The notes under the pieces: model-generated
The model's database searches: none
The model's input: the letters and a program-made list of their open reading frames with translations, nothing else
What the model was told of the DNA's origin: nothing
In this document: piece after piece, positions 26,948 to 49,381 of the stretch
How the letters are laid out: every line of letters begins with the position of its first letter
Position numbering within the stretch: position 1 is the first letter of the stretch
Position numbers and translations under genes: made by a program
Source: an uncultured delta proteobacterium
GTDB taxonomy: Bacteria > Desulfobacterota > RBG-13-43-22
NCBI GenBank assembly: GCA_963711835.1
Contig: CAVQFQ010000013.1
Location: forward strand, 1-64,000
Direction of reading: 5' to 3'
DNA: 64,000 nucleotides

Positions 26948-27317
26948 GAGTTTGTCCCAACGTTATGTGATTCTCAAACCGAAGGGATTGTCTTAAAAAA
27001 ATATTAAATCACCCCAAAGGGCTTCGGGGGTCTTGATTTCAAGGATTGTCCGCCAAAACGCCGGCAGCTTGAACCCGGGCAGGAAGTTTAAAATGGGGTT
27101 TAGAAACAGGCCAACACCAAAGTCCCGTCTTCGGCGGGATGAATGCCCGGCTTCCAACCAACTTAGAAATTTGGGCCGGGTTCTTCGCATCCAAAACAAT
27201 GCCAGTCCCACTCCTGCGAGTGGATCAGTTGGGGCTATGGATTACCTTGCGGACAACCTTGAAATCAAGACCCCCGAAGCCCTCGACGAATGGAGTGCTT
27301 AACGTTGGGACAAACTC
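26948..27317. mobile_element. MITE-like element with nested inverted repeats (copy A)
   Basis: Perfect 18-bp outer IR gagtttgtcccaacgtta (26948-26965/27300-27317); perfect 27-bp inner IR agggcttcgggggtcttgatttcaagg (27018-27044/27257-27283). Confidence 0.85.
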
Positions 27318-27329
27318 AAAAATTAATCG

Positions 27330-28274
27330 ATGAACGATGAGCGCCGGATGATAAAGGCAGCCCTAAAAAAAGGAGGGCATCTCTGGATCGGAATAAGCGC
27401 TCTGCTGTTTTTCCAGACCGCCCTTTTCCTGCAGATTGAGCCGATTGTCACCTATTTTTATTCCTTTATCTGGTGGGCCTATGTGGTCACCGTGGACGGA
27501 TTGATTTACCGAATCCAAGGACATTCCCTGATCATCAACCGGACTCGGCAATTCTTTCAGTTGCTTCCCTGGTCGGTTTTTATCTGGCTCATTTTCGAAG
27601 GGTTCAACCTGATACTGAAAAATTGGTATTACATCGGGGTCCCCAAATCCATTTTCCTGCGCTGGCCGGGCTATTTCGTGGCCTACGGGACCGTTCTTCC
27701 CGCCATCTTTGAAACCAAAGAACTACTGGCAGCCTTGGGCCTGTTCAAAAAAGGCCGTCTGCGGCCGGTTCAAATCCGTCCCACCTGGTTCCGGCCTCTC
27801 ATAGTCATCGGGTCCCTCTGTCTGATTCTACCTTTGATGGTCCCGCCCTTTTTCTTTCCCCTGGTCTGGTTGGGCTTTATATTCCTTCTGGAACCGTTCA
27901 ATTATCAAACCCACCGGCCTTCTCTTCTTAAAGACCTGGAACAGGGAAAATTGGAAAATCTCCTCCAACTTCCTTTGGCCGGTATGATCTGCGGTCTGCT
28001 CTGGGAGTTCTGGAATTACTGGGCCAGCGCCAAGTGGGTTTACACCGTTCCCTGGGTGGGGGAGTTAAAACTGTTTGAAATGCCCATCCTGGGATTTTTC
28101 GGATTTCCCCCCTTTGCCGTGGAGTGCTTTGTTATCGTCGCCTTCCTGGGATTTTTTGAAGGCCGGACGGAAAAACAGCGGCGGTCGCCTTGGGGGTTCT
28201 GGCCGGTATGGCTCTTTTTCTACCTGGTTATGTTTTCAGCCATCGATACCTATACGGTCCGGTCGTTTGGATGA
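27330..28274 (+). CDS. Multi-pass membrane protein
   Basis: ~8 hydrophobic helices, WEFWNYW and FEMPILGFFGFPPF motifs. Confidence 0.8.
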   Translation: MNDERRMIKAALKKGGHLWIGISALLFFQTALFLQIEPIVTYFYSFIWWAYVVTVDGLIYRIQGHSLIINRTRQFFQLLPWSVFIWLIFEGFNLILKNWYYIGVPKSIFLRWPGYFVAYGTVLPAIFETKELLAALGLFKKGRLRPVQIRPTWFRPLIVIGSLCLILPLMVPPFFFPLVWLGFIFLLEPFNYQTHRPSLLKDLEQGKLENLLQLPLAGMICGLLWEFWNYWASAKWVYTVPWVGELKLFEMPILGFFGFPPFAVECFVIVAFLGFFEGRTEKQRRSPWGFWPVWLFFYLVMFSAIDTYTVRSFG

Positions 28275-28308
28275 CGAGGAATAACCGTAAGAGGCCTGAG
28301 GTTGGAGG

Positions 28309-29646
28309 ATGAAAAAGAAACTCTATTTCATCAGTCTGGGCTGCGCTAAAAATCAGGTGGACAGCGAGATCATGCTCCACGAATTGGAAAGCCGGGGCCT
28401 GGTCCTGACCCCGGACCCCGAAAAGGCCGAGGTCGTCATTGTCAATACCTGCAGTTTTATTGAATCGGCCACCCGGGAAAGCATCGATACCATTCTGGAG
28501 GCCGCCCGGTTGAAACAGGAAGGCCGATGCCGGGTGTTGGCTGTAGCCGGTTGTTTCCCACAACGCTATCGGGAATCCTTAATAGCCCAATTGCCTGAAG
28601 TGGACCTTTTTTTGGGAACCGAATCGTTTGTAGGTATCGCCGATCAGGTCCTGGCTCTTTTGGCCGGGGATAAAAGCGAAACGATGATCCTGAGACCCGA
28701 TCCCCGGCTCTGGGCAGGACCTCTCAGCCGCACCGTGACCACGGGCAAAGGGTCGGCCTATTTAAAAATCGCTGAAGGCTGCTCCAACTTTTGCGCCTAC
28801 TGCACCATCCCGTCGATTCGGGGACCGTTCCGAAGCCGCGATCCAGGGATCCTGCTCCAGGAGGCAAACAACTTAGCCGGGCAAGGGGTCAGGGAACTGA
28901 ACCTGGTGGCCCAGGATACGACGGCTTATGGAACTGATTTGAGGCCCTCCTCTTCTCTGATGGCCTTACTGAAGGCCTTGATCCGGATCGAATCGCTCGC
29001 CTGGCTTCGGCTCCTCTATCTCCGGCCGGAGAGGATTACCCGGCCCTTGCTGGATTTGATGGCCGGGGAAGGGAAAATCTGCCCTTACCTGGATATCCCT
29101 GTCCAGCATATCAGTGATGCGGTTCTGAAGAGGATGAATCGGCCTTATCGGGGTAAAAAGCTACGGGGCCTGATTTCTCGAATCCGTCGCCTCCTGCCCC
29201 AGGCGGCCCTGCGGTCAACGGTCATGGTCGGTTTCCCCGGCGAAGGGGAAAGGGAATTTCAGGAGCTGTTCAATTTTATCACTGAAGTTGAATTCGATCA
29301 CCTGGGCGTCTTCCCATTTTCTCCGGAGGAAGGCACGCCGGCCGCCCAGTATGCCGATCAAGTACCCCTGGAAATCAGTCAAAAAAGGGTTGATCTCTTA
29401 ATGGAACGGCAAAAAGAAATATCATTTAAAAAAAATCAGGCTCGGATCGGGACCCTGGAGCCTGTTTTGGTCACCGGACTCAGCCCGGAAAGCGATTTGT
29501 TGATCCAGGGGCGGACCCGTTTTCAGGCCCCGGAGGCGGACGGGGTGATCTATCTTACCCGGGGCCAGCCCCGCTTCGGCGAAATCCAGATGGTTAAAAT
29601 CACCGAAGCCCATCCTTACGATTTAGTGGGAGAAATTTGCGAATGA
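28309..29646 (+). CDS. rimO: Ribosomal protein S12 methylthiotransferase
   Basis: SLGCAKNQVDSE, KIAEGCSNFCAYC radical SAM motif, APEADG, TRAM domain. Confidence 0.95.
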   Translation: MKKKLYFISLGCAKNQVDSEIMLHELESRGLVLTPDPEKAEVVIVNTCSFIESATRESIDTILEAARLKQEGRCRVLAVAGCFPQRYRESLIAQLPEVDLFLGTESFVGIADQVLALLAGDKSETMILRPDPRLWAGPLSRTVTTGKGSAYLKIAEGCSNFCAYCTIPSIRGPFRSRDPGILLQEANNLAGQGVRELNLVAQDTTAYGTDLRPSSSLMALLKALIRIESLAWLRLLYLRPERITRPLLDLMAGEGKICPYLDIPVQHISDAVLKRMNRPYRGKKLRGLISRIRRLLPQAALRSTVMVGFPGEGEREFQELFNFITEVEFDHLGVFPFSPEEGTPAAQYADQVPLEISQKRVDLLMERQKEISFKKNQARIGTLEPVLVTGLSPESDLLIQGRTRFQAPEADGVIYLTRGQPRFGEIQMVKITEAHPYDLVGEICE

Positions 29647-29840
29647 AAGAGAAAGCCTATCCCTTTTCCTGTCCCATCTGCGCCAAGGTAACCGACTACC
29701 CCTTGGAACTATTTATTGAGGGGGCGGTTCTCACCTGCCCCTTCTGCAAACTGTCCCTTCGCCTCCACGGGCACATGCTGGCCTATATCCAGAAAGAAAT
29801 CGTGGAAATGAAAAAACCCGAAGAAGAGACAGTCACGTAA
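29643..29840 (+). CDS. Small zinc-ribbon protein
   Basis: CPIC...CPFC; ATGA overlap with the rimO stop. Confidence 0.7.
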   Translation: MKEKAYPFSCPICAKVTDYPLELFIEGAVLTCPFCKLSLRLHGHMLAYIQKEIVEMKKPEEETVT

Positions 29841-29880
29841 GTCCCAACCCCTGACCACCTGAGATTGCTTTTTTCTTCGC

Positions 29881-30966
29881 TTATTCTTTTAAGATTATAG
29901 GAAGATAGGTGGGGCAATAAAGTTGGGTCTGCCGTTCATAGGCTCCCAGGTCCACCTTTCCCCCAACGATTCGAGGATCCCCATTCTTATCTTCAGATAC
30001 ACCTGAGGAGGCCGCGTTGTCCCCGGCATTGATGGCCGGGGAGGAACACCGGAGATGCAAATCGAAGAAGCTCACATATCGGGGATCGGCTGAAATAGAC
30101 CCGATGCCTGGAGAGGCGCCGGAATAATTCCCCCAGGCATTGGCCCAGACATCATTGGTGCTGTTAACCGGTGCACTGGTGGCATCGGCATGGATTCCAT
30201 AGGTGCCGTTGGAAGTAATGACGTTGTTGGTTATCTGGGGATTGCTGGAATTGAAATTGGCGACTCCGCCTCCCCCGTAATTGAGAAAAATCGTGTTGTT
30301 CACAATGGACGGGCTGGCGCTGTCGTTAAAAATACCGCTGCCGTTGATGCCGGCAATGACGTTGTTGATGATGCTCGGATTCGAATAATAATTTTTAATC
30401 CCGGCGTCTGCCCCTCCGCTTCCTGAAAAGGTCACAAAATTACCGGAAATGGAAAACTGGGTAACGTTTTGAGTGAAAATCCCCGTGGAGGTGTTTTCGG
30501 TAATATTGCAGTTGTTAACATAACCTCTGATGGGGAAGAGGTTGGAAGACCCTATGAGATCTATCCCTTTTATCCCTTTTTTTACCGTTAAATTTTTTAT
30601 AAAGACAAACTTATTTCCACCCCAAACCTCAATAACATTCTGGTTGCTGGAAGAGGCGTCAATGATGGCCACCTCCGAGGAAAAACCTTCCAGGTACAAA
30701 GCCTTATCCATGATCGTTATGGGAAAGGTTTCGCCGTTAGCCGCGGTGGAATAGGTTCCCGCCAGGACATAAACCCCATCATTTTCTCCGGCCTTATTAA
30801 TGGCCGCCTGAATGGTTTTGCACGGATCTCCAGGAAGACAACTATTTGAATCGCTGCCAGTAGCTCCATCCACATAATACCAGGCCGCCTGGGCAACCGG
30901 ATTCAGAATAGTCAACACACCAAAAGCGACTAGCAACCCTCTTGCGACCCATCTTTTCATCGGCAA
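29881..30966 (-). CDS. Secreted right-handed beta-helix protein (DUF1565-like, choice-of-anchor-Q-like tail)
   Basis: Signal peptide, YYVDGATGSD...PCKTIQAAI, Asn-rich repeats, SPAINAG...VDLGAYE. Confidence 0.85.
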   Translation of the reverse strand: MPMKRWVARGLLVAFGVLTILNPVAQAAWYYVDGATGSDSNSCLPGDPCKTIQAAINKAGENDGVYVLAGTYSTAANGETFPITIMDKALYLEGFSSEVAIIDASSSNQNVIEVWGGNKFVFIKNLTVKKGIKGIDLIGSSNLFPIRGYVNNCNITENTSTGIFTQNVTQFSISGNFVTFSGSGGADAGIKNYYSNPSIINNVIAGINGSGIFNDSASPSIVNNTIFLNYGGGGVANFNSSNPQITNNVITSNGTYGIHADATSAPVNSTNDVWANAWGNYSGASPGIGSISADPRYVSFFDLHLRCSSPAINAGDNAASSGVSEDKNGDPRIVGGKVDLGAYERQTQLYCPTYLPIILKE

Positions 30967-31049
30967 CCTCCTTTTCTGTTAAACACTTCTAACTTACAAG
31001 AAGACACCCCTTTAATTCCATCTGATTTTACTTCCCGGCCAGGGGCTTT

Positions 31050-31436
31050 TTACCAAATCACCGCCACATCATAACGGGCGATCTGGTGATCAGCGGTCAG
31101 GATGGGCATTTCTTCCAACTGCGCCTGGGCTACTAACAGACGGTCAAAAGGATCCTTGTGATGGTCTGGGAGGGAAAAAATCTGCAAGGCATGCTTCATC
31201 CGGATGGCTAAACTTTGAAAAGCATTCAATTGGATTTGTTCCCAAATAAAGTCTACCGGGTTCTCCGAAATTTTTAGACGGCCCAATTGCGTCTTAATCA
31301 CCAATTCCCAACCCGAGGCGGCGCTCACAAATACTTCGTTATCCATATTTTTTATTATCTCCCCGGCGCGTGGAGACAGCTTGGGATCATCGGTGATCCA
31401 CCAGAGAAAGGCATGGGTATCCAGCAGGACCCTCAT
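31050..31436 (-). CDS. vapC: Type II toxin VapC (PIN domain)
   Basis: LLDTHAFLWW, SGWE, HKDPFDR, ILTAD. Confidence 0.92.
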   Translation of the reverse strand: MRVLLDTHAFLWWITDDPKLSPRAGEIIKNMDNEVFVSAASGWELVIKTQLGRLKISENPVDFIWEQIQLNAFQSLAIRMKHALQIFSLPDHHKDPFDRLLVAQAQLEEMPILTADHQIARYDVAVIW

Positions 31437-31669
31437 GATCCAAAGGCCTTTAGGAGAGACTTGGGCAGAGGTTTTTCAAAATCCCTGGAAATGACTATTT
31501 TCCCCTTGGCCGTTCCCGCCACCCTCTTGGCAGGTCGATTAACAAAGCTCACCAATCGCGCCACCGGTTTTCCGGCATGGGCAATAACCACCTCATCCCC
31601 TTTGGCCACCTGACCCAGGAGCCGTGACAGGTGGGTTTTGGCTTCATGAATATTTACTTTTTTTACCAT
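31433..31669 (-). CDS. Phd/YefM-family antitoxin
   Basis: VNIHEAKTHLSRLL...GKPVARL; GACTAAGTC repeated twice upstream (31697-31717). Confidence 0.92.
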   Translation of the reverse strand: MVKKVNIHEAKTHLSRLLGQVAKGDEVVIAHAGKPVARLVSFVNRPAKRVAGTAKGKIVISRDFEKPLPKSLLKAFGS

Positions 31670-31914
31670 GGCTTCCTCCCTTACGAGATTATATAGACTA
31701 AGTCCTTGACTAAGTCAAACTCTTTCCTTAATGCCCGAGATTGCCCCAGCGGCCTTTCAGGTCGTTGTGGGGGATCTTAGGATCTTGATGAAAAAATTAC
31801 TTTAACTTTTTTAAAAAATTTGGCATAAAATAAGTCTCATAAAACCAGAACGGGCTGGGGGGAAATGGGTACCGTTTTGTCAACGCCCCCAACCGGAATA
31901 AAGGAGGAGACTCG

Positions 31915-32016
31915 ATGGCAAAATCAATGGACTCAAAGAAGGACGCAAAAAAGAAGCCCGCCAAGACGGCCAAAGAAAAGAAGAAAGCCAAACAGGAAAA
32001 GAAAAAGGGGAAATAG
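31915..32016 (+). CDS. 33-aa lysine-rich small protein
   Basis: Not in ORF track; AAGGAGGA RBS then MAKSMDSKKDAKKKPAKTAKEKKKAKQEKKKGK*. Confidence 0.7.
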   Translation: MAKSMDSKKDAKKKPAKTAKEKKKAKQEKKKGK

Positions 32017-32039
32017 GCAGGCCAAAGCAATCGGGAGCC

Positions 32040-32312
32040 ATGGACGAGAGAAACTTTTACACGGAGGCCCCTGAGACGATAAAAACCGGCTATACCTGTC
32101 CGACGTGCCGCCAGACAGCCGAGTTCCCGGTCCGCTGGCTCAAGCGGACCAAAAAGACCAAACTGCCGCCCGGCGCCGACGAACGGGACCGGGCCAAGTT
32201 CGCCAAGGCTCGGGATTATCTGGTGCGGGTGGACGATTTCCTGACCTGCCCCAATCCGCGCTGCCGGCGCCGGTTTGAAATTCCCAATGATCAAACCGTG
32301 GTTTTGGTTTGA
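32040..32312 (+). CDS. Small zinc-binding hypothetical protein
   Basis: CPTC...CPNPRC, GGGAG RBS. Confidence 0.75.
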   Translation: MDERNFYTEAPETIKTGYTCPTCRQTAEFPVRWLKRTKKTKLPPGADERDRAKFAKARDYLVRVDDFLTCPNPRCRRRFEIPNDQTVVLV

Positions 32313-32335
32313 AAGATGCCGCGAATCGGTGGCCT

Positions 32336-32575
32336 TTATTTCAGGAATGGCCCCTGTGTTTGATCGAAGAGATCCCTGACAATCCCTTCGGCCTCCCCCA
32401 AGCGGGCTTCATCCACCATAACGGTCCCCCAACCCTTCTGGGTCACGAACAGCCCGTTATAGGCGGTATCCTTATATTCCCGGACCAGAAAGGGGATGGC
32501 CACCTTCCCCAGGGCGTCGGTCAGCAGATCGGCCTGGAATTGATTGTCCAGGGTGATTAATTTTTTCCAGTTCAT
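32336..32575 (-). CDS. Small PII/DUF2007-like putative signal-transducing protein
   Basis: NQFQADLLTDAL...IPFLV...GWGTVMV pattern. Confidence 0.7.
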   Translation of the reverse strand: MNWKKLITLDNQFQADLLTDALGKVAIPFLVREYKDTAYNGLFVTQKGWGTVMVDEARLGEAEGIVRDLFDQTQGPFLK

Positions 32576-32602
32576 TTCCGTGAAATAGGCCCGGTCAGGG
32601 AC

Positions 32603-32896
32603 CTACATATCCTTAATCCCGGACATCAACCGGTCAAACTTCTCCACTTCGACCACCGGTGAAGTCACAAAGGAGATGCCGGTCAACTTATTTAAGGCCA
32701 CCGAGGCGGCAAAGGCCTTTTCGGCATCCGGGAAATCCAGGGTAAAGACCAGATCGTGTTCCCCCATCACGGCAAACATGGAAATGACTGTGCCGCCGTT
32801 CTTCTTAATAATGGCAACCGCCTTTTTTGTCCTTTGGGAAGAAATTCCTTTTATCGACTCACTGGAATACTTTCCGAACATCATGAAGATCGGCAT
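32603..32896 (-). CDS. GYD-domain protein
   Basis: MPIFMMFGKYS...GG...MGEHDLV; AGGAGG RBS. Confidence 0.8.
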   Translation of the reverse strand: MPIFMMFGKYSSESIKGISSQRTKKAVAIIKKNGGTVISMFAVMGEHDLVFTLDFPDAEKAFAASVALNKLTGISFVTSPVVEVEKFDRLMSGIKDM

Positions 32897-32917
32897 ATTG
32901 AAATCCTCCTTTCGCTA

Positions 32918-33088
32918 TTAACAGGTTGCTGAAAAAGGCCCATCTATCCCGCGCTTCGCGGGATTGCCCTCATCCCTCGTCATTGCGACGTAGATCTAAT
33001 CTACGCCTCATTCCGAGGAATTTAGGGCGCCTTGTATCTGAACCTTTTTGAGCAACCTGTAAAAAAGGGTTTTTCCGCATCCTGTTAA
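32918..33088. mobile_element. MITE-like element with ACAGGTTGCT(G/C)AAAAAGG terminal inverted repeats
   Basis: acaggttgctgaaaaagg (32921) / cctttttgagcaacctgt (ends 33060), plus a second degenerate end to 33088. Confidence 0.75.
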
Positions 33089-33091
33089 TGA

Positions 33092-33493
33092 TTACTTTTT
33101 CAGATAAAAGTCATAGAGCGCCTTGCCTACAAAAAAATCTCCCCAGGCGATGCCGATGTCCGGCAGGGTCGATTTCAAAATCCAAGTACTCGGAGGCGCG
33201 GCCTTGGCGATGATTTCCGCGATACTGAAATGGGCCATAAAGACCGTGCCGTAGATGACGATCAGCCCGTTCAAGAGATACCCGTAAACAGCAGTACGGC
33301 GAAAAGCAAAAAGGGCCGTCACTGCGATGACGTCAAGGGCCGGGAAGATAAAAGCCAGAAAGCGGGTCCCGTTAAAAAGGAAAGACCCGGGATGAAGCTT
33401 GTCGGGGACCATAAAATAGTGGATTCGGTAATGGAGCATCAGTCCTGATATGGCCAGCAAAAATAGGGCCGCCAGAAGCGCTTTTCTATTCAT
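33092..33493 (-). CDS. Membrane protein (His-containing helices)
   Basis: Likely start MNRKALL after AAAGGGGAG; 3-4 TM helices; LHYRIH and MAHF. Confidence 0.75.
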   Translation of the reverse strand: MNRKALLAALFLLAISGLMLHYRIHYFMVPDKLHPGSFLFNGTRFLAFIFPALDVIAVTALFAFRRTAVYGYLLNGLIVIYGTVFMAHFSIAEIIAKAAPPSTWILKSTLPDIGIAWGDFFVGKALYDFYLKK

Positions 33494-33657
33494 GATCCTG
33501 CTCCCCTTTCTTGATAGTCTTGACCCCGGCGCCTGCCCCGGGGTTCGCCGGGTGATCGCCGCCTGGGAAGTTTCCTTTGTCATTCCGGGCTTGACCCGGA
33601 ATCCAGGAATGTATGTTTATTTCAGGCACAGGTCTGCCGGCGCGGCTCGGATCCCTT

Positions 33658-33762
33658 TTAAAAATGGAACCGGACCAGATGCCCCAGATACAAGGTAAAC
33701 CCGATTACAACTAAGTGGAGAATCCACCAGCCGGGCGTGAAGAGTAAAAAATATTTGATCAT
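33658..33762 (-). CDS. 34-aa single-helix membrane peptide (FTPGWWILH...GH)
   Basis: GGAGGG RBS, MIKYFLLFTPGWWILHLVVIGFTLYLGHLVRFHF*. Confidence 0.65.
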   Translation of the reverse strand: MIKYFLLFTPGWWILHLVVIGFTLYLGHLVRFHF

Positions 33763-33879
33763 GGCACCCTCCAGAGTAGATGACCGATGGTGTAAACGGC
33801 CGATATACCCAGGAGGTGGATGATCCACCAGCCGGGAGTGAGAAAACTGATTTTCCTGAAGAAGCCGGTTCTGTTCCAT
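33759..33879 (-). pseudogene. Frameshifted paralogous membrane peptide (FLTPGWWIIH...GH)
   Basis: AAGGAGGG RBS + ATG 33879; the +1 frame reads GFFRKISFLTPGWWIIHLLGISAVYTIGHLLWRVP*, with its stop overlapping the next ATG (ATGA). Confidence 0.6.
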
Positions 33880-34027
33880 GGTTGCCCTCCTTCTCAATTG
33901 ACCCGATTATAACCCATTGGGACTATTTGTTCCAGCAATCCGTTAAATTCCGGGCCGCGCCCCCAATTTTCCCCCCTTCCAAGTCTTGTAATTTTTTAAC
34001 TTTTTGTTTTCATTAATTAATGAAATT

Positions 34028-34043
34028 TGGCACCAATTTAGCT
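34028..34043 (+). promoter_or_regulatory. Putative sigma-54 promoter
   Basis: TGGCACCAATTTAGCT with GG at -24 and GC at -12. Confidence 0.55.
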
Positions 34044-34078: not shown

Positions 34079-34214
34079 ATGGCGGACTTATTTCATCACC
34101 TCTCGCTGGAAACGGAACTCCGCCTTCATCTCCACTGGGTCACCGGCCGGGTTTCCCGGAACGGAAGCGCCCTCGGCCTCGGACTGGCCGACTCCCTCAA
34201 AGAATTCGGCCTTG
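34079..34214 (+). pseudogene. Gene 5' fragment truncated by a repeat element
   Basis: GGGAGGA RBS, MADLFHHLSLETELRLHLHW...KEFGL, then runs into the IR element at 34215. Confidence 0.45.
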
Positions 34215-34510
34215 TTATTAACGGTCTCATAATTATATTTACCTGTTACGTGATGTATCATTTTTCTCTCGCCCGCTCTCTTCGGTCGCTCGAGTTCACA
34301 GAGAGCACAGAGATAATTTTATTTGACTGCCGTTGAGAAGGACGGCAGCCAAAAACCGCCTCAGGCCTTCGGCCATAAGTGCGCGACAGCGCCAAGCCTG
34401 TTTTTCATTGGCGGCCTCTCACCGGCAATGAAAAAATAGAACCTCTGCGACTCTGCGCGCTCTGTGAGAGATCGTCTTTTTAGTCGATATTATTTTGAGA
34501 TCGTTAATAA
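34215..34510. mobile_element. Compound MITE-like element (TTATTAACGRTCTCA ends with a nested CACAGAG/CTCTGTG element)
   Basis: ttattaacggtctcataattatat / atattattttgagatcgttaataa; internal cacagagagcacagag ... ctctgcgcgctctgtg. Confidence 0.7.
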
Positions 34511-34540
34511 TCATTCTATCTGGATAGAGGAGGAACTCAC

Positions 34541-35212
34541 ATGAAATTGCCATTCACCATCGACCAGTTTTTAAATGTTTTTCAAACCTACAACCTGTCC
34601 ATCTGGCCGGCTCAAATCGTCGCTTATATTCTCGGCGCCCTGGCCGTAATATTGGTTCTCAGAAGGACCGTCTCCGGCGACAGGATCATTGCCGGCATTC
34701 TCTCCCTGATGTGGTTGATGAACGGCGCGGTTTATCACCTTATCTTTTTCAGTCCCATCAACAAGGCGGCCTACCTCTTTGGCGCCATCTTCCTCATCCA
34801 GGGCCTCCTCTTTTTCCATGGCGGGGTATTAAAAAACAAGATCACCTTTCGTTGGGAACTTTCTCTTTATTCCCTGTTTGGAGCCCTTTGCCTGCTTTAT
34901 GCCATGCTCATTTATCCCTTATTGGGAGCCCTGGCCGGTCATGGCTATCCAAGGGGTCCCGTCTTTGGGGTGGCCCCCTGCCCGACCACTATTTTCACCT
35001 TTGGGTTGCTTCTCTGGACCCAAAAGCCTCTGCCCAAATACCTGGTCATTATCCCGTTGATCTGGTCTCTTATCGGGTTTGTGGCCGCCTTGCAACTGGG
35101 AATCAGGGAGGATATCGGGCTTCTCCTGGCCGGGGTAATCGGAACCTTTCTGATCGTCCTTAGGGACAGAAAAGGCCGGCCGGCTGAAGTCGCCGGCCGT
35201 TCAAGGACCTAA
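34541..35212 (+). CDS. Membrane protein (DUF6064-like)
   Basis: MKLPFTIDQFLNVF..YN...WP, FGVAPCPTTIFTFG. Confidence 0.8.
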   Translation: MKLPFTIDQFLNVFQTYNLSIWPAQIVAYILGALAVILVLRRTVSGDRIIAGILSLMWLMNGAVYHLIFFSPINKAAYLFGAIFLIQGLLFFHGGVLKNKITFRWELSLYSLFGALCLLYAMLIYPLLGALAGHGYPRGPVFGVAPCPTTIFTFGLLLWTQKPLPKYLVIIPLIWSLIGFVAALQLGIREDIGLLLAGVIGTFLIVLRDRKGRPAEVAGRSRT

Positions 35213-35283
35213 AGGGTTCAGGAGGAAAAAAGATGAGCAGGAAAGACTTGTAAAGGATTATCAATAAGAGGGAGGCCTACCTG
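35055..35283 (+). repeat. Direct repeat copy 1 (3' end of DUF6064-like gene and downstream DNA)
   Basis: Aligns by eye with 36385-36837 once the IS200-type insert is removed. Confidence 0.85.
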
Positions 35284-35976: not shown

Positions 35977-36377
35977 GGGGACGCTGGTAAGAAAGTAAGT
36001 ATTTCAGTTGATTAACTTTAACTGATTTTCCTGGGCGATAGCCTCCCCTCTTTCAACCGCGTACCCGACCCCAGGAGCACTTATCCCCAATCGTTTGGCA
36101 GGAATATCTTGCGACGCTCTATCCCGCGGATCATGATGTGGTGCAAAACACCGGGCGCGTCAAGACGAGCTAATCTCGGCATGCACTCATTCATTCCACA
36201 AAAAACCGCCTACGTCAACTTACTTTCTGATTCCTGTGAAGTAACCCTGGTTTTCGAAATAATGATGATTCTCACAATAATTTTTTCTAGTATTTACCGG
36301 ATATTGGAAACAGCATATTTTATTATTTTACTTCAAATCGAATTACTTCTCATGAATCCTTTCTTACCAGCGTCCCC
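35977..36377. mobile_element. Non-autonomous element with 19-bp IRs carrying an internally deleted RAYT/Y1 transposase
   Basis: ggggacgctggtaagaaag / ctttcttaccagcgtcccc perfect IR. Confidence 0.75.
36004..36182 (-). pseudogene. REP-associated tyrosine transposase (Y1) remnant
   Basis: MPRLARLDAPGVLHHIMIRGIERRKIF joined out of frame to C-terminal AKRLGISAPGVGYAVERGE...*. Confidence 0.8.
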
Positions 36378-36384
36378 ATTCCCA

Positions 36385-36837
36385 CGTTGATCTGGTCTCT
36401 TATTGGGTTTATGGCTGCCTTGCAACTGGGGATCAGGGAGGATATCGGGCTTCTCCTGGCCGGGGTGATCGGAACCTTTCTGATCGTCCTTCGGGACAAA
36501 AATGGCCGGCAGGGTGAAATCGCCGGCCGGTCAAAGGCATAGAGGGTTTAATTACTGTTAGGTAAACCCCCGGCTCTGCCGGGGGACCCCCAGAGTTTGA
36601 CAATTCCCCCTCACTCCCCCTTTTCAAAGGGGGAGGTTTCTCCTCCCTTTGGAAAAGGGAGGTCGGGGGGGATTTAAAAAGCATCTTGTTTTTTGTTTGC
36701 GATCAGGCCCCTTCGAGGGGCCAACAAACATCAAGCCTCCGGCTCTGCCGGAGATCAGGTGACTAGGTCAACTCACAGGAGGAAAGAAAGATCAGGAAAG
36801 ACGGGTATAGGATTATCATTAAAAGGGAAGCTTACTG
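36385..36837 (+). repeat. Direct repeat copy 2 (DUF6064-like 3' fragment), interrupted by an IS200/IS605-type element
   Basis: gttgatctggtctctt...gggaggatatcgggcttctcctggccgggg... matches 35055 onward. Confidence 0.85.
36558..36764. mobile_element. IS200/IS605-derived non-autonomous element
   Basis: End hairpins cccccggctctgccggggg and ctccggctctgccggag, gccccttcgaggggc hairpin, no transposase. Confidence 0.7.
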
Positions 36838-39484: not shown

Positions 39485-39486
39485 TA

Positions 39487-41375: not shown

Positions 41376-42998
41376 TTAGGGAAGTTTGTAGTCTTTGAAA
41401 TCGTCCCGAAGCTTGGTCTTGAGGAGTTTGCCCGTGGCCGTATGGGGAAGCTGGTCCACAAAAACCACGTCATCCGGCACCTGCCATTTGGCCACCTTTT
41501 TTCGCATATAGTCGAGGATCTCCTCTTTAGTGACCGCCACCCCTTTCTTCTTAATCACGATCAGCAAGGGACGCTCATCCCACTTGGGGTGGATCACTCC
41601 GATGACCGCGGCCTCGGCCACAGCCGGGTGTCCCAGGGCGTCATTTTCCAGGTCGATGGAGCTGATCCATTCTCCACCCGACTTAATCACATCCTTGGAT
41701 CGATCGGTAATCTGCATGTATCCGTCCGGATCCAGGGTAGCCACATCTCCTGTGTCGAACCACCCCTCGTTGTCCAAGATTTGGCCGCCTTCGCCCTTCA
41801 AATAGCCGTTGGCGATCCATGGTCCCCGGACCATGAGATGTCCGAAGGCCTTGCCGTCCCGAGGCAGTTCTTGACCCTGACCGTCGACGATTTTGAGGTC
41901 AACCCCGTAGATAGCCCGTCCCTGTTTAGCCTTAATGGAAAGTTTCTCTTCATAGGGCAGGATAGCATGTCTGGGCTTCAAGTTGCCGGTCGTGCCCAGA
42001 GGACTGGTCTCGGTCATGCCCCAAGCGTGGATGACTTGGACGTTATAGTCTTGCTCAAAGACTTCGATCATGGTCTTTGGGGCCGCTGAGCCGCCGATCA
42101 CGACCCGATTCAAATAGGGCAGTTTCTTGCCGGCGGTCTGGAGGTATTGCAGGAGCATCAACCATACGGTGGGAACGCCTAAGGTCAGGGTCACCTTTTC
42201 AGCATCGAGAAGCTCATAGATGGCTTCTCCATCCACCCTGGCCCCGGGGAAAACTATTTTGGCCCCGCACATGGCCGCGGCATAGGGTACGCCCCAGGCA
42301 TTGGCATGGAACATGGGCACCACGGGCAAGACCACTTCTCCGCTGGAAAGGCCCAAGGCGTCTACGGTGCAGACACAGAAGCTATGAAGGACCATGGACC
42401 GATGCGAACAGAGGACTCCTTTGGGATTGCCCGTTGTTCCTGAGGTGTAGCACAGAATGGAGGCCGTGTTTTCGTCGAACCTGGGCCAATTATACTCATC
42501 GCTTTGTTTCCCGATTAAAGTTTCGTAACACAAGCAATTAGGGAGGGTGGTCTTGGGCATATGGGGCTCGTCGGTCATGATGACCAATCCCTTGATGGCC
42601 GTAAGCCGGTCGGCAATAGATTCAAGAAGAGGGACAAAAGGTAAATCTACAAAGATATATCGATCCTCGGCGTGATTGACGATATAAGCGATCTGTTCAG
42701 GAAAGAGTCTCGGGTTTATGGTGTGCAGGACAGCACCCATGCCGGGGACCCCGAAGTAGAGCTCCAAATGGCGGTATCCATTCCAGGCCAGGGTGCCAAT
42801 CCGGTCCCCGGGTTTGACTTCCAGAGAAAGTAGGGCCTTGGCTAACTGTTTGGATCGCTTATGGCTCTCCTGGTAATTATAGCGGTGCAGCGGACCTTCG
42901 ATGGTCCGTGATACCAGCTCCACGTCGCCGTGATACAGGTCGGCGAAGGAAACCAGTGAAGAGATTAAAAGGGGATAATCCTGCATCAATCCGTTCAT
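41376..42998 (-). CDS. Fatty-acid/3-(methylthio)propionyl-CoA ligase (AlkK/DmdB-like)
   Basis: [37 protein letters not shown]. Confidence 0.9.
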
Positions 42999-43082
42999 TG
43001 TTGTTCCTCCTTTTATGGGAGCAACCCTGGGGGCCACGCGGATTTATTAAGAGGGTCGGCCTATTCGGTGATGTCTCCAAAA

Positions 43083-43172
43083 TCAGAAAGGGATAGCCGC
43101 CTTTCCCAGGGCATCGGTCAGGAGATCAGCCTGGAATTGATTGTCCAGAGTGATTAATTTTTTCCAGTTCAC
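43083..43172 (-). pseudogene. Truncated 5' duplicate of the 32336-32575 gene
   Basis: VNWKKLITLDNQFQADLLTDALGKAAIPF*; 1-nt deletion then stop. Confidence 0.85.
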
Positions 43173-43243
43173 TTTTTCTTCGGTGGCGAAATTTTGGTGA
43201 CTGCCGACAAAGTTGGGGGAAGAGCTAAATTTTGTTTGATTTG

Positions 43244-43337
<94 letters not shown>

Positions 43338-43365
43338 GTTTTTTGAAAGTCAAATGCCCTTTGCC

Positions 43366-43401
43366 CCTCACCCCAACCCTCTCCCCCAAGGGGCGAGGGA
43401 G
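43366..43401. repeat. REP-like hairpin
   Basis: ccctcaccccaaccctctcccccaaggggcgaggga. Confidence 0.45.
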
Positions 43402-43454
43402 AAAAAAAGGCGGGGATTTGAAACCCGCGGGACATGGGTGTTATTCATGAAGCA

Positions 43455-43931
43455 TTATAGATTATTGTCGCGTTGTAATTTAAAAAATTTTTGCATCAGG
43501 TCCCGGCATTCTTTCTCAAGGACCCCGGAGACCACCTCAAAACGATGGTTCAAACGCTGATCCTGTGAGACATCATACAGAGACCCCAGGGCCCCGGCCT
43601 TGGGATCAAAAGCCCCGAAAACCACTTTCTTCACCCGGGCCTGGATAATGGCCCCGGCGCACATCAGGCAGGGTTCGATAGTGACAAACAGCGTGGTTCC
43701 CGGCAACCGGTAATTCTTCAGGACCTGGGCGGCCTGTTTTAAGACCAGGATCTCGGCGTGGGCCGTAGGGTCGTTCATCCTTCGAGGCTGGTTAAAAGCC
43801 GAAGCTATTTTTTCACCCGCATCGGAGATCAGAACCGCCCCGACCGGTACCTCCTCTTCCTGAAAGGCCCTTTCGGCCTCTTCGAGGGCCAGGGCCATAA
43901 ACGTTTCGGACCTTTCGATCCAACCCGCCAT
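43455..43931 (-). CDS. tadA: tRNA adenosine(34) deaminase
   Basis: EVPVGA, DPTAHAE, EPCLMCAGA. Confidence 0.95.
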   Translation of the reverse strand: MAGWIERSETFMALALEEAERAFQEEEVPVGAVLISDAGEKIASAFNQPRRMNDPTAHAEILVLKQAAQVLKNYRLPGTTLFVTIEPCLMCAGAIIQARVKKVVFGAFDPKAGALGSLYDVSQDQRLNHRFEVVSGVLEKECRDLMQKFFKLQRDNNL

Positions 43932-43932
43932 A

Positions 43933-45291
43933 TCAGTCCGTCAAATCCTTTTTGACCCGATCCAGCACCCCTTCGATCAGTCCCTGAATTTCCTCCAACC
44001 TCTCCGGGGAGTAGGCCTCGAAGCGGAGCACCAAAACAGGCTGGGTATTGGAGGCACGGATCAACCCCCAGCCGTCTTCGAATTGGATCCGGACCCCATC
44101 CACGTCAATGATCTGAAAGCGGCCGGCGAGTTCCGCCTTAACGGCTTCCACTATCATGAATTTCTTCTCCTCCGGGCAGACCACTCGGATTTCCGGGGTG
44201 GAAAAGGTCTTCGGCAATCCTTCCAACAATTCAGGGATGCGCTTTTCGGTCTTGGACAGGATTTCAAGCAGCCGCAGGGAGGCATAGACCGCATCATCAA
44301 AGCCGAAGTAACGATCGGCGAAAAAGAGGTGGCCGCTCATTTCGCCCGCCAAAACGGCCTTAACCTCTTTCATTTTTTGCTTGATCAGGGAATGGCCGGT
44401 CCGCCACATAACAGCCCGGCCCCCCCGGCGGGGGATGTCCTCATAAAAATTCTGGGAACATTTGACCTCTCCCAGAAAAGTAGCCCCGGGATTATGCCTT
44501 AAAATATCGCGGGCAAAAAGGATCATCAACTGATCCCCCCAGATGATTTCCCCGGTATGGTCGATTACCCCCAGGCGGTCGCCGTCCCCGTCAAAGGCCA
44601 GCCCTACATCCAGCTTTTTGCCGACCACCAACTCTATTAACTCCTTTACATTCTCCGGGACCGTCGGATCAGGCTCGTGGTTGGGAAAGGAGCCGTCGAT
44701 GTCGCAATACAAATCGAACACCTGACAGCCCATCTGCTTCAGGATGGGCAGGGCCAGCCAGCCCCCGGTCCCGTTGCCGCCGTCGATGCCGACCCGCAGG
44801 GGCCGGGCTATCTGAATGTCCCGGCGCATAAACTCCTGATAGGCCGGAACCACGTCGGCAAAAGACAGGGAGCCTTCCCCGGTAAGGAAATCCCCTCTCT
44901 CGGCGATGGCCCGCAGGCTTTGAATCTCTTCCCCGAAGATGGTATCCGGTCCGCTGCAAATCTTGAAACCGTTATATTCGGGGGGATTATGGCTGGCCGT
45001 GATCATAATCCCGCCGTCGGTCTGGAGATGGCGGATGGAAAAATACATAAGCGGAGTGGGGCCGACGCCGATATCAATAACTTGGCAACCGCTGGACAAC
45101 AGCCCTTTCAGCAGATGTTCCCGGAAAGGGGCGGAGCTGTTTCGCCCGTCCCGGGCCAGGGAAATCTTTTGCTGTCCCTTCCGGCCCAGGTAGGTTCCCA
45201 TGGCCTTCCCGAGGACGGTCACCTCTTCCAGGGTCAACTCCTTACCGACCACGGCCCGGATATCGTATTCTCTGAAGATCTGTGGATTCAT
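43933..45291 (-). CDS. Phosphomannomutase/phosphoglucomutase
   Basis: FREYDIR, TASHNP, FDGDGDR, GEMSGH, RASNT. Confidence 0.95.
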   Translation of the reverse strand: MNPQIFREYDIRAVVGKELTLEEVTVLGKAMGTYLGRKGQQKISLARDGRNSSAPFREHLLKGLLSSGCQVIDIGVGPTPLMYFSIRHLQTDGGIMITASHNPPEYNGFKICSGPDTIFGEEIQSLRAIAERGDFLTGEGSLSFADVVPAYQEFMRRDIQIARPLRVGIDGGNGTGGWLALPILKQMGCQVFDLYCDIDGSFPNHEPDPTVPENVKELIELVVGKKLDVGLAFDGDGDRLGVIDHTGEIIWGDQLMILFARDILRHNPGATFLGEVKCSQNFYEDIPRRGGRAVMWRTGHSLIKQKMKEVKAVLAGEMSGHLFFADRYFGFDDAVYASLRLLEILSKTEKRIPELLEGLPKTFSTPEIRVVCPEEKKFMIVEAVKAELAGRFQIIDVDGVRIQFEDGWGLIRASNTQPVLVLRFEAYSPERLEEIQGLIEGVLDRVKKDLTD

Positions 45292-45293
45292 CC

Positions 45294-46376
45294 TTACAAC
45301 AAATCCTCCCGGCCCTCTTTCTCCAGGAGTTCAACGACCTTCTTGACCTCCTGAGAACGCTCCCGGGGACAGATCAGAATGGCATCCCCGGTGTGCACCA
45401 CGACCAGATCCTGCACCCCCACCAGGGCCACGATTTTATCCGGGCTATGGACCAGGCAGCCCCGGCTGTCGATGGTATAAACCGTCCCTTTGAAACAGTT
45501 CTGCTGGGCGTCCTTGGCCTCTAACTGATAGACCGCCTCCCAACTGCCCACATCGTTCCAGCCGAAATCGCCCTCCAGCATAACCACATTATCGGCCCGC
45601 TCCATCAGGGCATAATCAATCGAGATATTTTCCATCCTCTCATAAGCCGCCCGCAGGGCCCGGTCCCAGACGGGCCGGTTGAAGGCCTTTTCCAGGTCGG
45701 CTAACTCCCGGTATAAATCCGGGGTAAACTGGGCCATTTTTTTCAGGACCGAGGCAACGGACCAGATGAACATGCCGCTGTTCCAAAAAAAGGTGCCGGC
45801 CTTCAGCATGGCCGAGGCTTTCTCCCGGTTGGGCTTCTCATGAAAGGCCTTGACCTGCCGCACCTCCCGGCCCTGGAGTTTCCTGATTTTTTTCCCCTGT
45901 TCCAGATAACCGTAACCCGTCTCCGGGGCCGTAGGTTTGATCCCTAAAGTAATCAGATAATCCCCCTCCCGCGAGACCTGCAGGGCCGCCTTCAGGGTCT
46001 TCAGGAATTCTTCCGGTCGGGAAATGTAATGGTCGGCCGGCAGGACGGCCATCGAGGCCGTGGGATCCCATTTGGAAAGGATCATGGCCGCCAGGCCGAT
46101 GCAGGGGGCGGTGTTTTTCCCTAAGGGCTCGACCAGCAGATGACGGTCTCTCAAATCGGGCAAAAGTTTTCTGATGGCTTCAGCCTGGGATATTTCCGTC
46201 ACCACCAGGATATGGTCCCAGTCGGTCAGGGGCAGGACCCGGTCGATGGTCTGCTCCAGGATGGTCTTGGGACCGATGATATCCAGAAGCTGCTTGGGCC
46301 GCCTAGTCCGGCTCCTGGGCCAGAAGCGAGTCCCCCGGCCCCCGGCCATGATAACGGTATAAACGGGAAAGGTCAT
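45294..46376 (-). CDS. manC: Mannose-1-phosphate guanylyltransferase
   Basis: MAGGRGTRFWP.SR...PKQ, EPLGKNTA, GYGY, WNDVGSW. Confidence 0.93.
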   Translation of the reverse strand: MTFPVYTVIMAGGRGTRFWPRSRTRRPKQLLDIIGPKTILEQTIDRVLPLTDWDHILVVTEISQAEAIRKLLPDLRDRHLLVEPLGKNTAPCIGLAAMILSKWDPTASMAVLPADHYISRPEEFLKTLKAALQVSREGDYLITLGIKPTAPETGYGYLEQGKKIRKLQGREVRQVKAFHEKPNREKASAMLKAGTFFWNSGMFIWSVASVLKKMAQFTPDLYRELADLEKAFNRPVWDRALRAAYERMENISIDYALMERADNVVMLEGDFGWNDVGSWEAVYQLEAKDAQQNCFKGTVYTIDSRGCLVHSPDKIVALVGVQDLVVVHTGDAILICPRERSQEVKKVVELLEKEGREDLL

Positions 46377-46443
46377 GAGTGCCCCACTCTCACGTGTCGC
46401 GAGGTAATCTTTTCACCTGAACGGAAACCGGCCTCCGTCTTCC

Positions 46444-47631
46444 TCATTGGCAGGCCCCGGCCGCCCGGCTCTTTCCTTCTTTCCAAAAGGGCGAAATGGC
46501 CCTCAAGCGTTCAATAATCGGGGGAAGATACTCCAGGACGTATTGGATTTCCTCCTCCGTATTATAGATGCTCAGGCTGAAACGGATCGACCCGTGGGCG
46601 GCCGTGAAGGGGACGCCCATGGCCCGAAGGACATGGGAGGGCTCCAGAGACCCGGAGGTGCAGGCCGAACCGGAGGAGGCACAGATTCCCAGGTTGCTCA
46701 AGAGAAGCAGGATCGATTCCCCTTCAACATATTCAAAGCTGATACTCAAGGTGTTGGGAAGCCGCTCTTTCCGATGGCCGTTAATAATGGAATTGGGGAT
46801 CTTTTCCAACAGCCCCTGTTCCAAGGTATCCCGGAGGTTCCGGATCCTCTCATTCTCCTCCTTGAGGTTCTTCAGGGCCAGCCCGCAGGCCTGCCCCAAC
46901 CCGACCATATAGGGGACGTTTTCGGTCCCTCCGCGGCGCCCTCTTTCCTGGTGACCGCCAATGATGAAAGGGGTGAAACGGGTCCCTTTCCGGATGTAGA
47001 GCACGCCGATGCCTTTTGGGGCATGCAGTTTGTGCCCCGAGATGGAAAGAAGATCGATGGGAACCTGGGAAAGATCGATCGGGATCTTACCCGCAGCCTG
47101 GACCGCATCGGTGTGAAAAACCACCCCTTTCGATTTAACCAGCCGGGCTATGGCCTCAATGGGGAAAATAACCCCGGTCTCGTTGTTGGCCCACATGATG
47201 CTGACCAGGGCCGTGTCGTCCGTTATAGCCGCCTCCACCTGTTCCGGATCCAGCCGTCCTTCCCGGTCTACCGGCAGGACCGTCACCTTATAGCCCCTTT
47301 TGGAAAGATAGGTGGCCAGGTTCCCCACGGCCGGATGTTCCACCCGGCTGGTGATGATATGCTTTTTCTGGGGATAGGAATTCAAGGTCCCCCAGATGGC
47401 CGCATTATCGCTCTCGGTCCCGCAACTGGTAAAAACGCATTCCTGCGGATCGGCCCCGATCAGGGCGGCCGTTTCTTCCCGGGCCTTCTGGATATCCTTG
47501 GCTACCTGTCCGCCGAAAGTATGCATACTGGAGGGGTTTCCATAAAAAGTGCCGAAGTAAGGCAGCATGGCCTCCACGACCTCGGGAGCGGTTTGGGTGG
47601 TGGCGTTATTATCCAGGTAAACGACTTTCAT
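46444..47631 (-). CDS. nifS: Cysteine desulfurase NifS
   Basis: YLDNNATT, SGHK, SSGSACTS; coupled to nifU. Confidence 0.95.
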   Translation of the reverse strand: MKVVYLDNNATTQTAPEVVEAMLPYFGTFYGNPSSMHTFGGQVAKDIQKAREETAALIGADPQECVFTSCGTESDNAAIWGTLNSYPQKKHIITSRVEHPAVGNLATYLSKRGYKVTVLPVDREGRLDPEQVEAAITDDTALVSIMWANNETGVIFPIEAIARLVKSKGVVFHTDAVQAAGKIPIDLSQVPIDLLSISGHKLHAPKGIGVLYIRKGTRFTPFIIGGHQERGRRGGTENVPYMVGLGQACGLALKNLKEENERIRNLRDTLEQGLLEKIPNSIINGHRKERLPNTLSISFEYVEGESILLLLSNLGICASSGSACTSGSLEPSHVLRAMGVPFTAAHGSIRFSLSIYNTEEEIQYVLEYLPPIIERLRAISPFWKEGKSRAAGACQ

Positions 47632-48476
47632 GACTTGACCTCCTCCACCGTAATCTCCGGATGAACGAATTCCTTGAACTTGGATTCCACGTAGTCCTTC
47701 AGGGTCACTTCGGCGGCCCGGCAGGAGGAACAGGCCCCGCGCAGGGCCACCAGGACTTTGTTGCCTTCGATATCGATCAAATCGATATCGCCGCCGTCGG
47801 CCTTGAGGGCCGGCCGGATTTCCCGCTCCAAGGTTTCCTCGATCAGCTTCATTTTCTGGATATTGGTCAGGCGGACCGCCGCCTTTCCGGCCGAGGCTTC
47901 CCGGAGGGGTTTTTCTTCTTTCAAAATGCGCTGCAGGATGACCTCGATCTTATCGTGACAGGTTTCGCACCCGCCTCCGGCCTTGGTATAATCGGTTACT
48001 TCCTCCCGGGTCCGGAGATTGTTTTGCCGGATAACCCGCTCGATCTCTTTATCGGTGACGCCGAAACATTCGCAAACAATCTCCCCCTCTTCCTCCTTGG
48101 GTTTGGCCAGCCCGCGATAATTGGCTATGGCTGCAGACAGGGCCTGCTCGCCCAGGACCGAGCAATGCATCTTTTCCTTGGGCAGTCCTCCCAGGAAGGC
48201 CGCAATATCCTTATTGGTGATCTTCTCGGCCTCTGCGAGGGTCTTCCCGATAATCAGTTCGGTCAGGGCCGAGGAGGAGGCGATGGCGCTGGCGCAGCCG
48301 AAGGTCTGGAATTTGGCCTCCTTTATCCGCTTATCCGGGTCCAATTTAAAGGTCAAACGGAGGGCATCGCCGCAGGCCAGGGAACCCACCTCACCGACCC
48401 CATCCGGGTTTTCGACTTCCCCGATATTCTTGGGGCTTTCAAAATATTCCTTAACCTTTTCCGTATAATCCCACAT
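47628..48476 (-). CDS. nifU: Fe-S cluster assembly protein NifU
   Basis: IscU domain (ACGD, FGC, KMHC), BFD-like CECF...GGGCETC, Nfu GACSSC. Confidence 0.95.
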   Translation of the reverse strand: MWDYTEKVKEYFESPKNIGEVENPDGVGEVGSLACGDALRLTFKLDPDKRIKEAKFQTFGCASAIASSSALTELIIGKTLAEAEKITNKDIAAFLGGLPKEKMHCSVLGEQALSAAIANYRGLAKPKEEEGEIVCECFGVTDKEIERVIRQNNLRTREEVTDYTKAGGGCETCHDKIEVILQRILKEEKPLREASAGKAAVRLTNIQKMKLIEETLEREIRPALKADGGDIDLIDIEGNKVLVALRGACSSCRAAEVTLKDYVESKFKEFVHPEITVEEVKS

Positions 48477-48614
48477 ACCCGATCCTCCGAACACCGAAGT
48501 TAACCTTGGAAGGGCGTTCCATGTAATTCCTAAGCATTCTCCTTGAATCCTTGAACCCTTGAATCCTCGAATCCTTCTATCATCGCCAACTTTTTTGGAG
48601 ATGACCCTTTATTT

Positions 48615-49016
48615 TTAATGCGAATACTGAACCAATTCGATCAGTATCCCAAAAGTCCCCTTGGGGTGCAGGAAAGCGATCTTGGCTTGATGGGCACCGG
48701 GCCGCGCTTGTTGATCCACCAGGGGAACCCCCTTGGCCTTTAATTCTTCCAGAGCCTGGTCAATATCGTCCACCTCGAAAGCAATATGATGAATCCCCTC
48801 CCCTTTTTTATCGATAAACTTATTCATGACCCCTTCCGGATCGGTGGATTGGACCAACTCCACATTGGTCTGCCCGATGGGCACGAAGGCGACCTTCAGT
48901 TCGCCCAGCATTTCTTCGTGAGAAACCGGCAAAGAAAGCAAGTCCTGGTATAAGGTTTTAGCCTGATCGGTGTCCTTTACGGCCACGCCGATATGGGCGA
49001 TCCTCTTGATCTTCAT
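48615..49016 (-). CDS. mce: Methylmalonyl-CoA epimerase
   Basis: HIGVAV, GEGIHHIAFEV, GAH...AFLHPK..G.LIEL. Confidence 0.9.
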   Translation of the reverse strand: MKIKRIAHIGVAVKDTDQAKTLYQDLLSLPVSHEEMLGELKVAFVPIGQTNVELVQSTDPEGVMNKFIDKKGEGIHHIAFEVDDIDQALEELKAKGVPLVDQQARPGAHQAKIAFLHPKGTFGILIELVQYSH

Positions 49017-49049
49017 TTTTCGCGACCTCCTGATTATTTTACATCTTTT

Positions 49050-49381
49050 GGGATAGTCCCAAAGTTACGTAATTCTCAAACCGAAGGGGGTGTCTCTTAA
49101 AATATTAAATCACCCCAAAGGGCTTCGGGGGTCTTGATTTCAAGGTTGTCCGAAAGGGTATCCGTAGCCCCAACCCGGCCCGAATTTCTAAGTTGGTTGG
49201 GAGCCGGGCATTCACCTAAGACGATAAATCGCTTTGGTGTTGGCCTGTTTCTAAATCCCATTATAAACTTCCTGCCCGGGTTCAGGCTGCCGGCGTTTTG
49301 GCGGACAATCCTTGAAATCAAGACCCCCGAAGCCCTCTATGAATGTAGTGGCTAAAAATCACGTAACTTTGGGACAAACTT
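49050..49381. mobile_element. MITE-like element with nested inverted repeats (copy B, core inverted relative to copy A)
   Basis: Outer IR gtcccaaagttacgt (49056-49070/49361-49375); same 27-bp inner IR as copy A (49119-49145/49310-49336). Confidence 0.85.

Follow-up and report, generated by a model that had tools for sequence, protein, structure and literature searches.

The first 64,000 nucleotides of contig CAVQFQ010000013.1 from an uncultured deltaproteobacterium (assembly GCA_963711835.1; this whole stretch is called the window here) hold two complete copies, A and B, of a non-coding repeat whose outer shells point the same way and whose cores, each lying between a pair of inverted arms, point in opposite directions. 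The family is an undescribed variant, a transposable element of the miniature inverted-repeat type (MITE) with a flipping core; a literature search on nested MITEs with internal inverted repeats and inversion, and on MITEs in Desulfobacterota, found nothing on it among the papers listed. We consider it probable that A and B are non-autonomous transposons of 330-370 bp whose core has often been flipped in place, likely by homologous exchange between the ~34-bp arms and not through an invertase of its own. Phase-variation switches are usually called from just this signature, a core flipped between inverted repeats. On this reading, the family shows at scale that a hairpin passenger in a MITE gives the switch signature without a dedicated enzyme, and the sequence tests that separate the two are co-variation of the arms, the exchange point, stability at orthologous loci and gene bias.

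The first-pass annotation of the window, made from its letters alone, described the build of A and B well. The copies have a common shell in one orientation (59 of 67 aligned bases agree in the left shells and 28 of 34 in the right shells), their inner 27-bp repeats are perfect and identical in both, and the core of A matches the reverse complement of the core of B at 147 of 159 positions, if A's 48-bp insertion and small hairpin swap are left aside. The arms extend ~7 bases further into what had been called core, and the module inside both copies is a hairpin of ~215 bp with 27+7-bp arms and a core of ~164 bp. Because this core is a degenerate palindrome, the halves of which align better than in 1000 of 1000 shuffles, the cores of A and B are still 71% identical on the same strand. 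An extra nucleotide said to move with the core is indeed at the same core end in A and B, but it does not always do so across the family. The left terminus of A bears the variant of the right end. No contig of the outside runs bridges the inner arm of A.

The suspicion of a dispersed, nested family with an invertible core was borne out in the genome (3.9 Mb, 28 contigs, 89% complete), where a profile search with the core found 135 loci, 118 of which were catalogued as full modules. Five shell types hold modules, four of them in both orientations. Shell S1, the type of A and B, has 32 forward, 9 reversed and 3 mosaic copies, and a divergent subfamily adds two forward ones; the forward/reversed counts are 24/4 for S2, 3/0 for S3, 14/11 for S4 and 3/13 for S5, the labels of S4 and S5 being arbitrary. 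Three further shells, at loci of another genome, also occur with both orientations (5/3, 1/5 and 3/2). Three of the 118 modules lie on two small contigs, C27 and C1, whose sequences repeat stretches of C17 (97.6% over 8.9 kb) and of C21 (93-98%); these modules have the same orientation as in the partner contigs, and C27 and C1 are likely strain haplotypes.

Inversion of the core in place

The core inverts in place: at one orthologous locus, between the same two flanking genes, the module cores of G010 and G014 (related species) are opposite. The flanks are collinear (93% over 560 bp and 86% over 229 bp), and the two cores are identical at 156 of 164 positions once one of them is turned, the next best core reaching 77%. 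The reversed state also has many independent origins. A single clade of reversed copies was rejected both on the S1 tree (40 rows, excluding mosaics, the divergent subfamily and one duplicate; AU test, p 8e-12) and on the S4 tree (25 rows; p 1e-4), and orientation changes eight times on each tree, equal to shuffled labels.

The arms carry traces of exchange. Rare variants occur on both arms of one copy far above expectation in S1 (11 observed versus 0.75 expected), S2 (5 versus 0.29) and S4 (29 versus 2.55), and in S5 at 5 versus 0.43, where the shuffle maximum was also 5; whole arms co-vary, outermost bases included. The exchange point varies among copies. Among the 9 reversed S1 copies the extra nucleotide moves with the core in 8, and among the 4 reversed S2 copies in 2; it remains with the shell in one reversed copy of each type, is absent from one S2 copy and is doubled in some copies, and an outer G/A difference remains with the shell in all 3 reversed S1 copies bearing it. 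Conversion or swapping of the outer ends is seen in 5 of 43 S1 copies, including A. In coreless hairpin shells (C8:20936-21089, and several of types S4 and S2) the breaks fall at short repeats that differ from shell to shell, as does the portion of the arms retained. Three "empty" S1 shells measure 120 bp; for two of them, other strains have a filled shell at that locus, and the gap shows a 4-base microhomology. The empty shells look like deletions.

Homogenised arms together with an inverted spacer are the signature described for template switching in the cited part of PMC8604942, and recombination between the 23-bp ends of an insertion sequence leaves the same signature in the account cited from PMC3004938. 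Arm co-variation, a variable exchange point and slippage-type deletions therefore indicate template switching or inverted-repeat recombination. The exchange between inner arms may proceed by either, through a fold-back or cross-fork polymerase switch during replication or through RecA-type recombination by the host. Most flips would be rare and neutral, then inherited and spread by transposition, with the mobilising transposases presumably acting in trans, and recombination within the inner arm portion that the shells have in common may also carry cores from one shell to another. Most likely the flip is incidental, a copying or recombination accident rather than a gene switch.

Several points weigh against this explanation. 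The spacer inversions published for yeast are 2-5 bp, as far as the cited part of PMC8604942 goes, and hence far shorter than 164 bp. Short arm and core motifs are invariant across genomes, so that a protein may bind them, and the genome holds seven tyrosine-recombinase matches. The trees rest on rows of ~250 bp with low support, and recombination among copies can scatter the labels. One in-place flip stands against 10 unflipped locus pairs, and the evidence for flipping comes from assembled genomes and contigs. Three S1 copies of 167 bp each alternate between the orientations 9, 7 and 5 times, and a single template switch does not easily produce such fine-grained mosaics. The mosaics may be the consensus of mixed-orientation reads, which would mean that both orientations were in the sample and that flipping is faster at those loci; no mosaic was found among 21 metagenome cores, in a scan whose pattern would have missed mosaics.

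Across 34 diverse cores (mean identity 67%), short invariant motifs recur at ~29-bp spacing and mirror each other, with no covariation and no strand bias in the conserved motifs, and judged by its sequence the core looks more like protein-binding DNA than folded RNA. A bolder proposal, to which we give limited but real weight, is that the module is a cassette of its own: a palindrome built of invariant protein-binding motifs at even spacing (~29 bp), which would colonise MITEs of three unrelated transposition systems (marked by an 8-bp duplication, by a TA duplication and by a 3-4-base shared end without inverted ends), be exchanged among them, be kept by an advantage to its carrier and flip fast enough at some loci to give mixed populations. 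In two genera, non-autonomous transposons that are unrelated to each other and show three insertion signatures all carry this conserved module, and in another genome it rides at least three more shell types. Binding of a host or transposition protein, if it occurs, would make the module a novel sort of cargo common to several elements. It is this passenger that deserves following up, the same core in several unrelated shells being the odd feature.

Alternative explanations for the flipped cores

The first-pass annotation offered two explanations, of which one was a dispersed phase-variation switch, with a recombinase acting in trans that flips the core at many loci and alters the expression of neighbours. 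Such a switch would fit the presence of both orientations in four of five shell types, the conserved arm motifs, the near 1:1 orientation ratio in S4, the mosaic copies if they come from mixed populations, and the seven tyrosine-recombinase matches, yet we judge it improbable. The 89%-complete genome has no match to the resolvase family of serine recombinases (PF00239), no module core lies in the six tyrosine-recombinase loci scanned, and the one-nucleotide marker that travels, stays, is doubled or is lost, in arms that co-vary as a whole, speaks against a defined crossover site. Genes show no bias either in counts based on simple calls of open reading frames (ORFs) of at least 120 aa: the core runs with co-directional flanking ORFs in 37 cases and against them in 35, a start within 200 bp is faced by right shell ends in 41 cases and by left ones in 36, and counted by the core end that faces such a start the split is 36 to 41. 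Right ends had been reported to point into nearby gene starts, and locally this stands for the two fragments (30 and 22 bp) and for A (12 bp from an ORF start); at B it is the left end that lies 33 bp from one, and the genome as a whole shows no such preference. No sigma-70-like site was found in the core of A or B, other sigma factors not being covered. A dedicated invertase, a fixed crossover point and directional cargo aimed at a gene, three features of site-specific invertons, are thus not seen here.

Comparisons between strains bear on the same question. Among 73 metagenome modules, 25 have no flank match in this genome, 35 lie at sites without a full module here, 4 are neighbouring elements of another shell type and 9 are shared. 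Orientation is kept at all nine shared loci, three of them reversed, with three of the nine alignments ending short of the core, and it is also kept at a second G010/G014 locus. With nine of nine shared loci unflipped and 35 without a full module here, flips therefore seem rarer than events in which the element as a whole is gained or lost. Comparison with metagenome contigs had also given four "flipped" calls, which were dropped: three, when aligned, proved to be different shell types at neighbouring sites, and the fourth (L184) maps beside the same site as one of these three.

The second explanation offered, an inner MITE that inserts site-specifically into outer MITEs either way, with orientation fixed at insertion, fares no better, and we hold it to be similarly improbable. 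The arms are of constant length, coreless hairpin shells exist, and the shells are not detectably related, so the module must once have entered them. As the cause of the flips, however, such insertion is largely refuted by the in-place flip at the G010/G014 locus, whose two cores are specific to that locus, and by empty shells that end at varied microhomologies and retain different arm parts, as deletions would. No shell-less full module was identified (1 of 107 lacks a shell call), and among the 77 copies recovered with the arm motif, in a search that allowed 3 mismatches, not one has a direct duplication where the arm has its centre. Apparent free cores in G008 were situated in shells on inspection.

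Errors of assembly or polishing across the inverted repeat might be feared in a metagenome-assembled genome with a multi-copy repeat, and the three mosaic copies resemble consensus artefacts. This we find hardly credible: independent metagenome contigs show the core reversed at the same three loci, other genomes also hold reversed copies, and contigs of runs X1 and X2 contain opposite-strand joints across the 27-bp arm, which are not locus-specific. It is also very unlikely that we are dealing with a structured RNA, or with a REPIN-like element that owes its movement to a Y1 (HUH) transposase, in which the module folds on either strand such that orientation is irrelevant. B does fold as a long hairpin (z -10, as single-stranded DNA), the genome has 12 Y1 matches, and paired arms co-vary as they do in the REPINs described in the cited part of PMC3116915. 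Neither A nor B has an Rfam match, however, the consensus fold of the 34 diverse cores is weak (-9 kcal/mol), the inner conserved motifs are invariant rather than covarying and have no G-U strand bias, no module core lies beside the 10 examined of the 12 Y1 loci, and no free copies were identified. Coverage of the repeat by contigs of the RNA run X5 is not evidence of expression. Exchange between the arms of a mobile, gene-less element remains the explanation that we prefer.

Insertion signatures, spread of the module and other copies in the window

The mobile unit is the whole outer element of 330-370 bp. B is absent from contigs of all four outside runs, which skip 340 bases (332 + 8). Shells S1-S3 have outer inverted ends (86 paired outer ends were found) and an AT-rich target duplication of 8 bp, which is exact in 36 of 82 elements and has at most one mismatch in 59 (shuffled control mean 2.5); duplication lengths of 5-7 and 9-11 gave no exact match. 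With terminal inverted repeats and a duplication of fixed length, and being short, non-coding, multi-copy and insertion-polymorphic, S1-S3 have these features of MITEs. In strain comparisons, insertion of S4 left a shared end of 3-4 bases, inverted ends being absent, whereas S5 made a TA duplication. Among the shells, S2 is related to S3 and weakly to S1 (7 of 300 shuffles), the remaining pairs being indistinguishable from shuffles. Where an S2 shell holds an S1-type core, that core shares 92% identity with S1 cores, as close as S1 cores are among themselves, which suggests recent cassette exchange between shells via the shared inner arm.

The core motif is present in this genome and in 9 of 20 other genomes of its taxonomic family, all in one genus; outside that family the arm motif gave single scattered matches in 10 of 387 genomes, like the reversed control. 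Named records with the module bear the titles of uncultured deltaproteobacterial, Thermodesulfobacteriota or Pseudomonadota genomes. No long, ORF-bearing parent of the module was found in 44 genome loci or 78 metagenome loci, and viral contigs gave no module match, in exact-pattern scans that miss diverged relatives.

As the first-pass annotation had stated, no recombinase or transposase was found in the window (12 families searched, no match inside). Searches of the genome with PF05598, PF01609, PF13610, PF03400, PF12762, PF06782 and PF01797 found no element with these ends, the genome being 89% complete, and neither did family-wide searches with PF06782, PF00872, PF01548 and PF01610, nor the transposase loci fetched from relatives. 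PF06782 and PF00872 have no match in the genome itself (the PF06782 control matched nowhere), and their matches in relatives lack these ends. A 2,495-bp S2 copy (C10:53481-55975) was rejected as an autonomous partner, both of its ORFs belonging to a separate element inserted in the core hairpin. That element (L003:305-2472, in G000 C10) is a single-copy, two-ORF element with 16-bp inverted ends, and sits in a hairpin loop inside the S2 core with a 5-9-base duplication; its ORFs encode an HTH protein of 190 aa, ending in a run of A, and a DDE_Tnp_1 protein of 423 aa, and their fusion by a frameshift is possible. A resemblance of the arms to ISL3 ends was checked and failed. Other resemblances, to hix-type sites, the ends of Tn3, attC sites and retron repeats, were judged by inspection, and we take them to be no more than leads.

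Table 1. Coordinates of the family copies and their parts (positions in the window unless a contig is named).
Feature	Coordinates	Strand	Remarks
Copy A, whole MITE, shell type S1	26948-27317	+	core in common orientation
A target duplication, left copy	26940-26947		8 bp; 6/8 match to 27318-27325
A left inner arm	27018-27044	+	27 bp plus ~7 bp running into core
A core	27045-27256	+	212 bp; 48-bp insertion; GC-rich hairpin 27123-27139 in place of usual centre
A right inner arm	27257-27283	-	
Copy B, whole S1 MITE	49050-49381	+	core reversed
B target duplication, left copy	49042-49049		8 bp; 7/8 match to 49382-49389
B left inner arm	49119-49145	+	
B core	49146-49309	-	164 bp; reverse complement relative to A
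B right inner arm	49310-49336	-	
Truncated copy, divergent S1-like subfamily	10727-10838		one core end, one arm, one outer end
Truncated S1 copy	54482-54557	+	only right arm and right shell
Full module in unrelated shell S4	54082-54394	-	arms 54136-54159 and 54329-54352
Shell S5 without module	12058-12152		one arm remnant
Mosaic core	G000 C17:515019-515239		
Mosaic core	G000 C25:34088-34306		
Mosaic core	G000 C4:304668-304888		

The fragments reported near 10739 and 54482 are real (Table 1), the former belonging to the divergent subfamily, and two further pieces had been overlooked, a full module in another shell (S4) and a module-less S5 shell. The S4 copy has no terminal inverted repeat in its shell and is missing at its site in two of four outside runs (a skip of 313, with 3 shared bases); the module-less S5 shell is likely a deletion product. 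At 34214-34511 lies an S5-type shell with the same inverted ends as the module-less one, in which a different, hairpin-rich passenger replaces the module; such shells can therefore carry other cargo. A lone S5 end with an arm remnant (25150-25187) directly precedes the ORF at 25195. Elsewhere, at G000 C16:105746-106148, an S1 element with its 8-bp duplication is inserted in the left part of an S4 shell, an ordinary nesting of shells. Time and again, segments of the core have given way, with junctions that recur, to GC-rich hairpins of 15-25 bp, as at 27123-27139 and in many other cores, sometimes with deletions of 20-55 bp; two such hairpin patterns have 33 and 68 instances genome-wide, counting both strands, and the Y1 transposases are possible movers of these short hairpins. 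The window also contains two pairs of direct repeats. One, of 88 bp (90%; 32490-32577 and 43087-43174), encloses 10.6 kb and adjoins a tRNA (43247-43337), possibly marking an integrated island or a duplicated gene start, and the other, of 172 bp (89%; 35047-35218 and 36377-36548), has its copies 1.3 kb apart.

Comparison with known systems

Some features of the family recall known mobile elements. The 8-bp AT-rich duplication is like that described for ISH6 elements (p-MULT 2; ISDesp5) in the cited part of PMC3942029, and by eye the S2 and S3 ends resemble the first bases of ISDesp5. Membership of that family is possible, but only 9 of 36 duplications fit AANATNTT with at most one mismatch, no ISH6-type transposase with these ends was found, and S4 and S5 have other signatures. 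Position 2 of the duplication is A and position 7 is T in 67 of the 72 strand readings. REPINs, as the cited part of PMC3116915 describes them, similarly consist of two inverted arms with a length-conserved spacer, compensatory changes and a whole-unit hairpin, but here we found no link to a RAYT (Y1) transposase (10 of 12 Y1 matches examined) and no free copies, and it is the outer shell that was seen moving as a unit.

For the flip itself, the template switching described in the cited part of PMC8604942 shares the identical arms, the reversed spacer and the recurrent, reversible events, but its spacers are 2-5 bp in yeast genes, compared with ~150-210 bp here in a mobile repeat. Inversion in place has been described for ISWpi1 of Wolbachia, where, according to the cited part of PMC3004938, 2 of 22 loci inverted between 23-bp inverted repeats and one arm was converted to the other. 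The outer ends here show the same conversions, but the main exchange lies between internal arms of a gene-less element, so that the shell keeps its direction and the passenger flips, and the flip recurs in at least seven shell types. The Correia (CREE/NEMIS) MITE of Neisseria is multi-copy and intergenic and is reported to invert in place (cited in the review PMC10969869, in the part used here); unlike the present family, it has no nested shell and carries promoters, whereas no promoter was found here, and in our family a TA duplication occurs only with shell S5. Overall, as far as these accounts go, the family behaves much as ISWpi1 and Correia elements do when they invert, with the exchange shifted inward to an internal repeat.

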